Of a DNA stretch of 64,000 nt, positions 21,301-27,300 are shown piece by piece. The position numbers were made by a program, and so were the translations under genes. The notes below the pieces were generated by a model, which saw only the letters and a program-made list of their open reading frames with translations, was not told the DNA's origin and did no database searches. This stretch comes from Owenia fusiformis (Eukaryota): assembly GCA_903813345.2 (NCBI GenBank), contig CAIIXF020000001.1:9114001-9178000 (forward strand), given 5' to 3'. Within the stretch, counting starts at the first letter, position 1; each line of letters opens with the position of its first letter.

Positions 21301-24300
21301 GAAACATTGATGAGGCGCAATAAGAAACATTGATGAGGCACAATGAGAAAAATTGATAAGCGCAATGAGAAATGTTGATAATGCGCAATGAGAAACATTG
21401 ATGAGGCGCAATAAGAAACATTGATGAGGCGCAATGTGAAAAATTGATGAGGCGCAATGAGAAACATTGATGAGGCACAATGAAAAACATTGATGAGGTG
21501 CAATGAGAAACATTAATGAGGCGCAATGAGAAACATTGATGAGGCGCGATGAGAAACATTGATGAGGCGCGATGAGAAACATTGATGAAGCGCGATGAGA
21601 AACATTGATGAGGCACAATGAGAAACATTGATGAGGCACAATGAGAAACATTGATGAGGCACAATGAGAAACATTGATGAGGCGCAATCAGAAACATTGA
21701 TGAGGTGCAATGAGAAACATTGATGAGGCGCGATGAGAAACATTGATGAGGCGCGATGAGAAACATTGATGAAGCGCGATGAGAAACATTGATGAGGCGC
21801 GATGAGAAACATTGATGAGGCGCGATGAGAAACATTGATGAGGCGCAATGAGAAACATGGTCAATGCATCACTGACATCAAACAGTATGTCTATAGCCTA
21901 ACTAGATAACAGCAACGCCAATGAGTAGCAAATCCTATCGAACAGCCATAACAATGGCTGGCATTTTTTTAAATGGCCACCTTTTTGTCAAGTTGTAATT
22001 AGATAGTGCCAAAAGTGTCATAAAACAGTGTGCCATGCTTATAAGTATTCACATATCAAACAATGAAATTGCTCCATTCCTTTTTAAGTTATAAAAAAAT
22101 TACTGTAGAATTGACACTAAAATGGCACCATGTTGCCATTTTCAAAATTGGCTTTAGAGCAAGACTTGTACTCATATGGGGCATATATGTATTACATATA
22201 AATGATATTGGGCCAACACTATTTGAGTTATTGTCCCAATGGACATATGGACCAGACAAACTGCTTCCCTATATCAAAAAATTAGAAACCCTGAACTTGT
22301 GAAGATTGGGGAATTGTGCTTTGCAAAGAAATCTTTAGACAAAATAGTCCTTCAAAAACACTGCAAAAACCTCCTTTCAGATAAAAATAATCATGATCAA
22401 AACCTCTTACTTAAACTGATATTAGATGGACAAGAATGGTTTGGAAGGTCAATTTGTCTATAGCTTTGTTTTGACTGAGAAATATAAAGAAAGAATTGAT
22501 CAATTTCCATGAAAATCTGTTTCTAAATTGGCTTAGGGAATGACCAGATCAGCTTGACCTTGGAGTTCTAACACAGGACATCAATTTCAAGTTCCAAATA
22601 TAGAGCTGTCAATCAAAATCTTGAACTGTGTGGAAGAGTAAAAGGTATTTTTAGTTTGATTGTGGATGATCTTTATTAAATTGAATTGTTCTCAGAAACA
22701 AAGACACTTTGTAACAATAATAAAAATTTAATTTGTAAGCATTTAGAACATGAATTTCGATAAATATATACAGGTCATAGTTACGTACAGGGTGGTAAAA
22801 AAAAATGGAAACCCTGTCGCCATTTTCCTCATATCTTTGTCATTTTAGGAAATTACTCCCTGATATTTAGCACATTTGTACATCATTCAATTTCCTACCG
22901 GCCTACCATATTCCATGACCATCATATTGATAGTCACAATTTTACAGCACTTTAAACAACATGCCCCATTGGCCAATATTGCACTTTTGGCAAACCTGCA
23001 CCTATCATCCAAAATGTCCCTACCTTACTTCAACCTGTGGTGATACACCAAAAAAGAGTGTATGAGAATAACCCCAGGACAATTGCAGACCTCAAAAAGC
23101 AGATCATCCATGTCATTCAGGCCATACCTGCTGAAAAATGTAGTAAGATCATTGACAACCTGTTCAGATTTGCCAATAGCGCGATGGTGGCCACACTGGG
23201 GCATCTTGTTTAAAGTGCTGTACCATTGTGACTATCAATCTGATGGTCATGAAATATCGTTAGCTGTTAGGAAATTGAATGTTGTACATGTGTGTCAAAT
23301 TTCAGGGAATAATTACCCAAAATGACGAAGATATGAGAAAAATGCAGGGTTTCCATTTTTTTGACCACCCTGTACTAGTAACACACACTGAAAAATACTA
23401 TTTTAAGCACAATAAAACAAATCAATAATTTTCTATGAATTGTAGATATGCAAGAAACAAAAAGATTAAGACAAAATATTCTATAGCTGGTAAAATAAGG
23501 ATCACACACTTTATTTGAACAATGAAGGATCACATACTTCATTTAATACTCAGTAGCTCTAAGTTGAGTCGTTGTTTTCTATTAAAGCAATATTTTATTG
23601 GAACTAAACGAAGGGATTAAACTTAAAATAAACGCAACCAAGATTTTAACATCTTGAAATCAATGTTTCATTAGAAAACTAAACAAAGAGATTAACCCAA
23701 AATAAACACAATCAAGATTAATAACTTTAATCCAAGTAAGGAGACAGGATTATCACCTTACTGGATTAACAGACAAAGTAGATGACATAATAAGCTGCTC
23801 AGGTTCATGCCAGATTTCTTCATTCCTATTGGTCCAAGGCAGCCATCATATCCTATTTAATAGCAGATGATGAGAAATATCAGCACTCATATCTGAGACC
23901 CGATACAACATGGACGTAGATGAAATGCAACCTTTTACTCCCAGCCAGAATCAACTGTATAACAAGATCATAAAACTTCAGCAGAAACAGAGAAAGTCTG
24001 AGCAACAAGTTAGATCTCTCATCTCCAAAGAAAAGTGTCTTATAGCAAGGCTAATGAAGGCAGAGAGTGAACAGAAACTACACAGCATGGCCAGTCTAGA
24101 GCTACAGCTTCTGTGTATTACAGAAACAAGATCCATGTTTGCTGAGTATTGGCAACAAGTTGAAGATCAGATTCGATCCCTCTGTAGTTCCGATCATCTG
24201 CTAATGCAACTGCTGCTAAGATGAACTTCTACCTCAAGAGATTATAACAAACGGTCCTTTTCAGGACCACATTCACTTACACAAGAGAAATTAACATTAT

Positions 24301-27300
24301 GAATCTATTTCTTAATATTTGCAAATGACTGAGTTTTTGTTGTTTGAAGTTTTATAAACTTGTAATATCATCTCCTTGAACAGATACTTCAACTAACAGG
24401 ATACATTCAATATCTAGTTATCACAGGCTCAAATAACTCTGCTATTTATGACATGATCGAGAACAAATACACTTTACTAGATTTAAGATTTTTTGTATAA
24501 ATTATCAATTTTTATTTATTTATTAGGATAAAATGCTTTTACAAGATCGACACTACTCAAATTAAGTGTGCATCCAGAGAGAATAAAATACATAATAGTT
24601 GCAGTAAAAAAACATCTCTCAACATTTTTAATTTGGTCCTGCCCCTATGTGCCTAAGTAAAGTGAATCACCAATAATGCATTGTAGCTCATGCATTGTAG
24701 CTTATGCATTGTAGCTTATCATTGAGGATAGCTGATAAATATTCACCTACAAGGGCAATGTCAGATGAAGAAATTAAATTATCAATAAATAGGTTTCTTT
24801 TATCTTGGATGTTGGGGGGCAAAGGAACAGGCGATGGGACATAGAGTTGTAAGAATTGGTGGGGCATAATTTACAAAAGCCATCACTTTTATTCCACCTT
24901 TTTTTCAGGTCTGATTCAAGGGTTTGTGAGTTCTTAATCTTTAAATAGCAGAAATAGTCAATTTGTCGAATGTGATATAGCACTGAAGCCCGATCTCGAA
25001 TGATGCATTAATTTTCTTAAAATATTATGATTCATGGTAAAAAATTATCAATGAAATAATGATCTACATTATTTGAACTACAAGTATGTTTAATAAAGCA
25101 TTAAAGGTTGAGTCAGTTGTTTTGAAATCAATATTTCATTGAAAAATGAGTCAGAAAAAAACAAAGGGATTACATCCAAAATAAACACAATCAAGATTAA
25201 CATCTTTAATCCCAGTAAGACGGGATTATGACATCACTAGATTAACAGACACATTGAGTAGGTGATAAAATGAGAAACCAAGACATTGAGTAGGTGATAT
25301 AATAAGCTGCTCATATTCATGTCAGATTCCTGCACTCTGATTGGTTCAAGGCAGCCAGCTTACTGTATATAAGAGCAAGTAATTTGAAATATCAGCACTT
25401 GTATCTGAGACCTGTAGCAACATGGACATAGAAGAAATGCAACCTTTTACTCCCAGCCAGAATCAACTGTATAACAAGATCATTATACTTCAGCAGAAAC
25501 AGAGAAAGTCTGAGCAACAAGTTAGATCCCTCATCTCCAAAGAAAAGTGTCTTATAGCCAGGCTAATGAAGGCAGAGTGTGAGCAGAAACTGCACAGCAT
25601 GGCCAGTCTAGAACTAAAGCTACTGTGTATTACAGAAACAAGATCCATGTTTGCTGAGTATTGGCAACAAGTTGAAGATGAGATTCAATCCCTCTGCAGT
25701 TCCGATCTTCTGCTAATGCAACTGCTGCCATGATGAACTTCTACCTCAACAGATAGTAATTAACGGTCCTTTTCAGGACCACCATCGGTTACAAAAGAGA
25801 AACTGATCTTGTGAAAATATCATCTCATTAAAGGAATATTCCTGGCCAGACCATTTCTCTCCTAATATGGTAGCTATAACCATATATATACTTTCCATAT
25901 TTAGCAAAACAGGGAAAAATGTTTTGATATGGTTAATATTGATCACTTGAAAATGTAGTGCCGAATTCCAGTAGGCTGCCATCTTTTAATATTACACTCA
26001 GGAAGTGATGTCATCAACTCTCAACTTTGCATATAACACTATAAGGAGCTATTAAGAATTACAAAACCAGCTGAATATTCTTTTTCAATTTTGTCTATGA
26101 TTTAATCCTTCTAAAAGTCTCTTCTTTTATTCTAAGCTGACAAGCTCTGAACATATTTTTGCGCATAAAGTAAGAATCACTCGTCTAGAAGTGATATTGT
26201 GCTATTTTCCTATACTGTTATATGCAAGGTCATGAAAGTTGAGGGTCGATGACATCACTTCCTGAGTAAAATTTTAAAAGATGGCAGCTTACTGGAAATG
26301 AGCACTACATTTTTAAATTATCAATATTGACTTTATTAAAACATTTGCCCATGTTTTGCTAAAAATGGAAAGTATATATATGATTATAGCTATCACATCA
26401 GGATAGAAAAGGTTTGGCTGGGAATGTTCCTCAACATTCTGATCTAAATTCTAAAAGGGTGGTGTTTCTTTTTGAAAGATTTGTGATCACTCACATTCCA
26501 AATATTCACTGTGTTATATCATGGGCTTTCAATTGGCCCATAGTCCCATGGTTATATATAATGAAGTGTCTCATTTTTTCCCTATGAATGCAATAGAAAG
26601 AGCCTATTGGGAGACCTGTTTATACATGATACCTGTAAGGCATCCTAAATGTGCTGCAAAAATACAGTAAGCCCAGCTTACTACAGTAATTCATCCTTTT
26701 TTACAACAAAAAATGTCCACCATCATATCTAATATGTAATATTAATACATGAACTTACCACAGGAGCTCCACAGGTCATCTTGACTAGTTTGTGACACTT
26801 CTTGTGTACCAGAAGTTTGCAGTCCACACATTTGAATCCCTGCCTTCCCAGTCCCCAGATTCTGTCAGAGCAGAATGCACAAAATGCTTTCTGAAAAACA
26901 TAAGTTTTATTTATCAAGCAGAAGTTAAATGTATTGGAGCACATTTGTGTCGAGATATTTGTTGTTTGACTAAAATATTTCAAACAGAAACAATTTCTTC
27001 AAAACTCAACCAATCTAAGCTAAACATGGCACTATTCAATGGCCTCAAATCGCCTTTCTTTACGCTAAACCCAACATTCACTAAATACAAACAATTTGGT
27101 ATAAGCATGAAGGTAGACATTTTGGAAACTTCTTTCAACTTTATTCATTATTTTGGTCTTATTTTGGTGGTCAATGAGAGAGTTGCGTGAGTAGGTCAAA
27201 TTATAATTATTCATGAATAAGAATAACCAATGCCTCAGAAACAGCAATGAGAGTATTTATAGCTGAAAGCATCAGGATTGCAAAGTATGCACATGTGCAT

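Follow-up and report, generated by a model that had tools for sequence, protein, structure and literature searches.

Replication-dependent histone genes have a characteristic anatomy: they are intronless and compact, carry TATA and CCAAT boxes and short untranslated regions (UTRs), undergo tandem duplication, and end in a 16-nucleotide (nt) stem-loop with an ACC or ACA 3' flank about 30 nt past the stop codon, followed by a purine-rich downstream element. The consensus of the stem-loop includes a 6-bp stem, a 4-nt loop with U at its first position, an A-rich 5' flank and an AC(C) 3' flank, and the pathway that acts on it (SLBP, U7 small nuclear ribonucleoprotein (snRNP), FLASH and CPSF73) is regarded as reserved for histone mRNAs. 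Here we describe a locus of Owenia fusiformis, found in a stretch of 64,000 nt (assembly GCA_903813345.2, contig CAIIXF020000001.1, positions 9,114,001 to 9,178,000 of the forward strand; hereafter the window, to which all coordinates refer), in which two neighbouring copies of a small open reading frame (ORF) are each embedded in such an anatomy. The locus nevertheless fails the defining feature of membership, as no histone is encoded: the predicted protein lacks a histone fold and is not basic, no histone family is found in any frame, the locus occupies an aPKC-like gene's intron instead of a histone cluster, and its promoters carry clusters of GGATTA/TAATCC motifs. Beyond the selection that seems to act on the ORF, the main point of this analysis is that a conserved ORF, although not that of a histone, sits in a complete expression cassette of the histone type.

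Two other kinds of genes are close enough to warrant comparison. Orphons are solitary histone genes that still encode a recognisable histone, and solitary H1 genes outside the core clusters are reportedly present in mussels. The locus resembles orphons in being a single histone-type unit away from the main clusters, with the motif AAACACA upstream, but its ORF is unrecognisable as a histone and the AAACACA motif is statistically not meaningful. Lineage-restricted small coiled-coil proteins share with the predicted products of the locus a length of about 100 amino acids, an all-helical structure, the lack of a detectable homologue and absence from the protein collection searched. Their genes are normally polyadenylated, whereas a histone 3' signal is present here, together with a local duplicate that permits a test of selection. 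In the portion of Brooks et al. (2015, PMC4604434) drawn upon here, histone mRNAs are described as the sole cellular mRNAs known to lack polyadenylation, and non-histone candidates in SLBP RNA immunoprecipitation (RIP) and crosslinking immunoprecipitation (CLIP) data are considered background. We found no report of a non-histone gene carrying both the stem-loop and the downstream element in a literature coverage that left out most subscription journals.

We favour, with a probability of roughly 0.55, the reading that the two copies (A and B) are tandem paralogues of an unannotated, intronless and apparently lineage-restricted protein-coding gene of O. fusiformis, nested in an intron, which has co-opted histone-type (SLBP/U7) mRNA 3' processing. 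Its observed basis consists of the two copies themselves, the pattern of divergence between them, the match to the histone stem-loop and the lack of histone similarity; transcription, mode of 3' processing, translation and oligomerisation we infer. A more ambitious version, to which we grant slightly less than even odds, holds that this is a real non-histone gene family under SLBP/U7 control, in which the histone 3' end was co-opted by an unrelated, lineage-specific coiled-coil protein and the promoter possibly responds to Otx-type factors and not to the cell cycle.

The 3' end of both copies carries the histone-type signal. Only two Rfam matches were recovered in the 64 kb, both to the histone 3' UTR stem-loop element (RF00032), both on the strand of the ORFs and both above the gathering score of 34: one at 24248..24292 in unit A (34.6 bits, E = 2.9e-6) and one at 25760..25805 in unit B (34.1 bits, E = 4.4e-6). 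The stem-loop proper, GGTCCTTTTCAGGACC, spans 16 nt (24253-24268 in A and 25765-25780 in B), is identical in both copies, and folds into a 6-bp stem closed by a 4-nt UUUC loop (GGTCCT-TTTC-AGGACC). AAC precedes it in both copies, and its 3' flank reads ACATT in unit A and ACCAT in unit B. Stem pair 2 is G-C, and loop positions 1 and 3 are both U; according to the part of a preprint on metazoan stem-loops used here (10.64898/2026.10.14.759114), SLBP binding requires this G-C pair and the U at loop position 3. When the window was searched with the pattern GGYYYTTHTNARRRCCAC, AC flank included, two matches were obtained compared to none in 100 shuffled sequences. With one mismatch allowed and the flank omitted, 11 of 100 shuffles reached two matches, and both the flank and the exact match therefore matter to this result.

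The spacing of these signals also follows that of histone mRNAs. The stem begins 28 nt (A) and 31 nt (B) past the stop codon, and the 26-nt element 23 and 26 nt past it, compared to a median stop-to-stem distance of 30 nt in 2,281 metazoan species and 25-60 nt to the conserved element, as given in the same part of that study (10.64898/2026.10.14.759114). Alignment and reading of the sequence further revealed a purine-rich core, AAGAGAAA, on the + strand at 24283..24290 in unit A and 25795..25802 in unit B. These 8 nt, which are identical in the two copies and start 10 nt past the expected cleavage site, look like a candidate histone downstream element. The copies differ at 5 of 27 positions in the stop-to-stem spacer and at 8 of 45 in the 45-nt element as a whole, so stem-loop and purine core stand unchanged amid surroundings that have diverged by about 18%. 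An earlier reading of the locus made from its letters alone (the sequence-only reading) had described a diverged spacer next to an identical hairpin, as is indeed the case, and had left the hairpin unnamed; by its sequence it is a canonical histone 3' stem-loop (RF00032), and this shifts the focus of the finding.

The ORFs themselves, delimited from the ORF list and alignment and both on the + strand, comprise 104 codons and a TGA in A (23910..24224) and 103 codons and a TGA in B (25422..25733), the latter followed by a second in-frame TGA. Over the 103 shared sense codons the Nei-Gojobori method counts 8 synonymous and 9 non-synonymous differences and no insertions or deletions (indels), and codon 104 is AGA (Arg104) in A and TGA in B. 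These counts bear out the sequence-only reading, which had arrived by eye at about 8 synonymous and about 10 non-synonymous differences, including the change of arginine to stop, in an ORF free of indels. That reading was also right in stating that non-synonymous sites are the more numerous, but the ratio is 3.9 (246.5 non-synonymous to 62.5 synonymous sites) and not roughly threefold. Differences fall 4, 4 and 9 times at codon positions 1, 2 and 3. The resulting Nei-Gojobori estimates are dS = 0.140 and dN = 0.037, with an omega (dN/dS) of 0.27 (Fisher p = 0.010), and Goldman-Yang pairwise maximum likelihood under three codon-frequency models gives an omega of 0.29-0.33 (likelihood ratio test against omega = 1, p = 0.014-0.022). 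When 17 random changes were simulated with the flanks' own, transition-rich substitution spectrum, the probability of 9 or fewer non-synonymous changes was 0.040, or 0.054 on condition that no stop arose. Every method thus returned an omega (0.27-0.33) below 1, as had been proposed, at modest significance. Consequently, the comparison suggests that the ORF sequence is under purifying selection, with support that is modest (about the 2-5% level) and derives from two sequences.

Two independent observations, the comparison with the flanks and the absence of indels, provide stronger support for constraint on the ORF than do the omega tests. The ORFs differ at 17 of 309 positions compared to 60 of 332 in the aligned non-coding flanks and are hence three times less diverged (Fisher p = 7e-7). 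In the upstream flank (23654-23909) the copies differ at 45 of 253 aligned columns and by 4 indel events that cover 50 columns, in agreement with the several indels noted there before. At this rate (4 per ~256 nt) about 4.9 events would be expected in the 312 nt of the ORF, where none is found (P(0) ~0.008). Non-synonymous changes are concentrated at the ends of the protein (codons 3, 4 and 22 and codons 87, 89, 96 and 103), and the stretch from codon 23 to codon 86 holds 2 non-synonymous and 7 synonymous changes. Scored for codon usage, frame 1 of the two ORFs reaches +10 and +14 bits, values also seen among the recognisable exons of the window (8.8-30 per 104 codons), and the other five frames are all negative. 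This is weak evidence, however, since stop codons occur both in the null windows and in the other frames.

Unit A (23654..24303) and unit B (25122..25815), both on the + strand and defined by blastn of one against the other and by alignment, each extend from promoter region through ORF and stem-loop to downstream element. Blastn aligns them over 698 columns with 81.8% identity, and no gap interrupts the alignment between the ATG and the end of the purine-rich element (394 nt), each position of B lying 1512 nt downstream of its counterpart in A. Homology is lost at most about 12 nt past that element, and the conserved unit therefore spans exactly promoter to processing signal. No further copy was found in the window (blastn and tblastn; no other match better than E = 3.7). 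The 0.8-kb spacer between the units (24304-25121), the region 5' of A and the region 3' of B have nothing in common except the arms of separate elements that resemble miniature inverted-repeat transposable elements (MITEs).

Each unit forms an intronless cassette of about 0.65 kb that includes a TATA-like box and, in reverse orientation, a CCAAT box. The reversed CCAAT boxes (on the - strand and reading ATTGG on the + strand; 23828..23832 in A and 25340..25344 in B), to which we assign a promoter function only putatively, sit in both copies in a conserved 18-nt block, ATTGGTYCAAGGCAGCCA in unit A. Sequence reading places the TATA-like box TATTTAAT of unit A at 23854..23861 and the TATA box of unit B (TATATAA) at 25366..25372, both on the + strand. 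The block GAAATATCAGCACT, conserved in both copies 25-30 nt downstream of the TATA-like box, is likely the start site of transcription. The resulting 5' UTRs of about 30 nt contain no upstream ATG in either copy, and the context of the start codon, CAACATGG, is identical in A and B.

Further upstream, motif counts revealed clusters of GGATTA/TAATCC, with four motifs within 155 nt in unit A (23614..23768, + strand) and three within 62 nt in unit B (25167..25228, + strand), so that 7 of the 31 matches in the 64-kb window fall in two short promoters. The pentamers GATTA/TAATC occur 6 and 5 times per ~310 nt upstream of A and B, compared to an average of 0.6 per 300 nt. We take TAATCC to be the site of K50 paired-like homeodomain proteins (Otx/Pitx/Gsc type), and the clusters hint at developmental rather than cell-cycle control. 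In unit A the cluster lies within a partly duplicated module of about 74 nt (23601-23645 and 23675-23719); a ~45-nt upstream module is present there in two copies 74 nt apart (23601-23719) and in a single copy in B. Unit B has instead a 32-nt direct duplication (25244-25306) 3' of its motif cluster, with none in A. These promoters evolve through small duplications. The motif AAACACA occurs in a fully conserved 25-nt upstream block of both copies; the idea that it represents an H1 box was discarded, the motif not being enriched in the window (27 occurrences compared to 23.5 expected).

With isoelectric points (pI) of 7.7 and 5.4 for the two copies, and with 12-14 lysines and arginines against 13-14 aspartates and glutamates, the predicted protein (about 12 kDa) ranges from neutral to slightly acidic. 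AlphaFold2, run with the two-sequence alignment, produced one continuous helix from residue 11 to residue 103 at a mean predicted local distance difference test score (pLDDT) of 91, and a hydrophobic residue, mostly leucine, recurs at every seventh position from L16 to L65. An all-helical protein with such leucine-zipper-like heptads would probably act as a coiled-coil oligomer; the prediction of a homodimer scored 0.00, which is evidence neither way. Pfam searches returned nothing significant for either ORF or for five fragments in other frames, and no histone family at E <= 10. A histone relic in another frame was rejected on the same grounds, and so was a bZIP protein, a class defined by a basic DNA-binding region directly N-terminal to its leucine heptads, since the heptads are present but no bZIP family appeared even at E <= 10. 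No match was found among PDB sequences at E <= 10, nor with Foldseek when the single-helix model was used as query. Both its sequence and its predicted structure indicate that the protein is not a histone.

The search for relatives in larger collections was equally unproductive. A search of 5.8 billion protein clusters gave no candidates at near lengths and 25 at longer lengths, none of them at E <= 0.01. The sole match among 1.84 billion representatives, a highly repetitive protein of 1,726 amino acids (E = 2.6e-7, 29% identity over 44-residue stretches), was judged spurious on account of its repeats. Pattern matches in metagenome contigs (307) and viral contigs (51) yielded no confirmed relative, and the top score in the ESM Atlas (0.75) was under the level of a lead. 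As a control, the neighbouring ORF at 39810-40823 matched only its own O. fusiformis protein in the database searched, which indicates that the database is poor in annelids and that little can be concluded about the gene's taxonomic range from the failure to find homologues. The 'orphan' status of the ORF consequently means that relatives were undetected; lineage restriction is unproven.

The two units lie in animal DNA of about 34% GC, within a gene recognisable from three Pfam domains: a C1-domain exon at 26758..26891 (C1_1, 7.7e-15, within 26732-26983; exon ends set by the loose ends of RNA reads), an exon with a PB1 domain within 28299-28697 (6.3e-12) and a kinase exon within 16350-16754 (Pkinase, 3.3e-5). 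All three are on the - strand, and the + strand gene pair is therefore nested in an intron of, and antisense to, an aPKC-like gene. Pfam searches revealed no histone genes in the window, whose gene content includes a G-protein-coupled receptor (GPCR), the aPKC-like gene, CAP-Gly and GH3. The part of a genomic study of O. fusiformis used here (PMC12153100) places the canonical core histones in H4-H3-H2A-H2B arrays on chromosomes 5, 7 and 8, and the study makes no mention of stem-loops or SLBP.

The same intron region harbours a 23-nt minisatellite at 19692-21858 (about 95 copies, 89% matching, consensus CAATGAGAAACATTGATGAGGCG), which produces long spurious stop-free frames on the - strand. Two MITE-like elements, at 25832-26431 and 22785-23375, have inverted arms of 197 nt and 151 nt, respectively, that are 85% complementary. 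The first lies directly 3' of unit B and shows a depth of 20-95x in RNA sequencing (RNA-seq) with many variant letters, and its summed contig depths run from thousands into tens of thousands; depth and variant letters indicate that it belongs to a very abundant, transcribed repeat family. Elsewhere in the window, the 338-amino-acid exon at 39810-40823 (-) has no Pfam family, its sole database relative (E <= 1e-5) being its own O. fusiformis 'unnamed protein product', and the exon upstream of it at 41211-41711 (-) has a hydrophobic N-terminal segment. The product of these two exons is apparently another lineage-restricted protein.

Several observations weigh against the co-option of a histone 3' end by a functional gene pair. 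Three stranded RNA-seq runs carrying the same species label, 6-12% of each of which was read, gave a depth of only 0-3x over A and B, in both orientations and no higher than in the surrounding intron; the C1 exon of the host gene reached 6-17x in the same runs, all in - strand orientation. The reads were too few to reveal any RNA end. Since neither the library selection method nor the tissue is recorded, this depth is neutral and lends no support to expression; it is what a stem-loop mRNA would show if the libraries were poly(A)-selected, as non-polyadenylated mRNA would be largely lost from these. Data on variation (contigs of sequencing run X2, with no recorded library type, and reads of run X16; 24081-24305 and 25418-25562) revealed in another individual (X2 contigs) a mosaic haplotype that is A-like but has the letters of B at 24168, 24196, 24217 and 24219, and further variants of copy B in codons 11-12 (25452, 25456 and 25457). 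The four differences of the mosaic from A that fall in the ORF and the three variants of copy B are all non-synonymous and lie in the variable ends of the protein. They suggest that the two copies have exchanged sequence by gene conversion, or that further alleles or paralogues exist, and conversion could explain part of the low divergence of the ORF. The selection test, moreover, is based on 17 substitutions between two sequences, with a simulated p of only 0.04-0.05, and the RF00032 scores of 34.6 and 34.1 exceed the gathering score only narrowly. Neither the collections searched nor the window yielded an orthologue or an additional paralogue that would independently confirm conservation. 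Finally, the exact ORF sequences are absent from a collection of 15 billion proteins that includes the annotation of this species; as the neighbouring O. fusiformis protein is present there, the small genes appear to be unannotated.

Run X2 also showed an uneven depth that we have not used as evidence. Summed contig depth was 60-93 over the promoter of unit B (25305-25431) and the middle of ORF A (24035-24161), mostly 4-15 (0-28 across) in nearby bins, and no deeper over the host exon than over the intron. With several contigs summed and the library type unrecorded, the peak could be open chromatin or extra copies.

Other explanations may be considered. The units could be the decaying shell of a histone orphon, a duplicated solitary cassette in which the original coding region is lost or unrecognisable and the present ORF is a chance frame that makes no protein, with gene conversion homogenising the middle of each unit. 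By chance alone, 64 kb of DNA at 34% GC should contain roughly one or two frames that run for about 116 codons without a stop, and the ORF stays open in 34% of simulated sets of 17 changes. The mosaic of A and B is what conversion would leave, RNA depth does not exceed background, and the collections searched hold no homologue. ORF B has moreover 103 codons, the same number as histone H4, though this may be coincidence. Conversion alone, however, does not explain the synonymous excess (omega ~0.3, p = 0.014-0.05; 4, 4 and 9 differences by codon position), and no histone family was detected in any frame. In addition, the stem-loop, the purine core, the CCAAT block and the context of the start codon have remained intact in both copies while the sequence between them diverged by about 18%, which argues for a working gene. 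We regard a decaying orphon as unlikely. The conservation of stem-loop and downstream element would also suit a non-coding RNA gene with a histone 3' signal, such as a short nuclear RNA or a decoy for SLBP or U7, since constraint at the RNA level could also make the centre more conserved than the flanks and would account for the lack of a protein homologue. Yet divergence follows the periodicity of codons with omega below 1, both copies have retained a long open frame whose start context is good, and the stem lies 28-31 nt past the stop, near the histone-mRNA median of 30 nt reported in the part of the metazoan study used above (10.64898/2026.10.14.759114). Such an RNA gene appears distinctly improbable.

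The architecture is also that of a solitary histone gene, and with AAACACA, presumably the H1 box, in the fully conserved 25-nt upstream block of both copies, the protein could be a highly diverged chromatin protein (linker-histone or protamine-like, of sperm nuclei) that has kept the ancestral organisation of its gene. A neutral to acidic product (pI 7.7 and 5.4) predicted to form a single long helix is hardly expected of such a protein. There is no match to a histone, linker-histone or other Pfam family or to a PDB sequence, and 27 occurrences of AAACACA are not significant against 23.5 expected in the window, so we hold this origin to be very improbable. Least probable of all is a gene of a mobile element or virus that was copied locally. 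The homologous unit is short and sharply bounded, the spacer has no counterpart elsewhere, and MITE-like inverted-repeat elements flank the pair. But the unit itself does not end in inverted or direct repeats, only two copies are present in the window, viral and metagenome contigs contain no relative, and the adjoining MITE-like elements are separate insertions that share no sequence with it.

If the pair is indeed a coding gene that co-opted the histone 3' end, its expression may be pictured as follows, by analogy to histone genes. SLBP would bind the stem-loop of the pre-mRNA and the U7 snRNP would pair with the purine-rich element, upon which CPSF73 would cleave 4-5 nt past the stem without polyadenylation. 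The mature mRNA would be intronless and roughly 0.4 kb long, including a 5' UTR of some 30 nt, and SLBP would govern its translation and decay, as it does with histone mRNAs.

The significance of the locus hinges on the status of the ORF. Were the ORF a relic, this would be an ordinary decaying orphon of little interest. If the favoured reading is true, the pair would be an exception to the rule that, among cellular mRNAs, only those of replication-dependent histones end in the stem-loop, and the histone 3' pathway would be open to co-option by a non-histone client. It would also reveal a blind spot, as such genes are expected to evade both poly(A)-based RNA-seq and annotation, and the absence of the two ORFs from the protein collection fits this expectation. 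Finally, the gene pair of O. fusiformis would constitute a natural test of what the stem-loop alone confers upon an mRNA, be it coupling to S phase, maternal storage or rapid decay.

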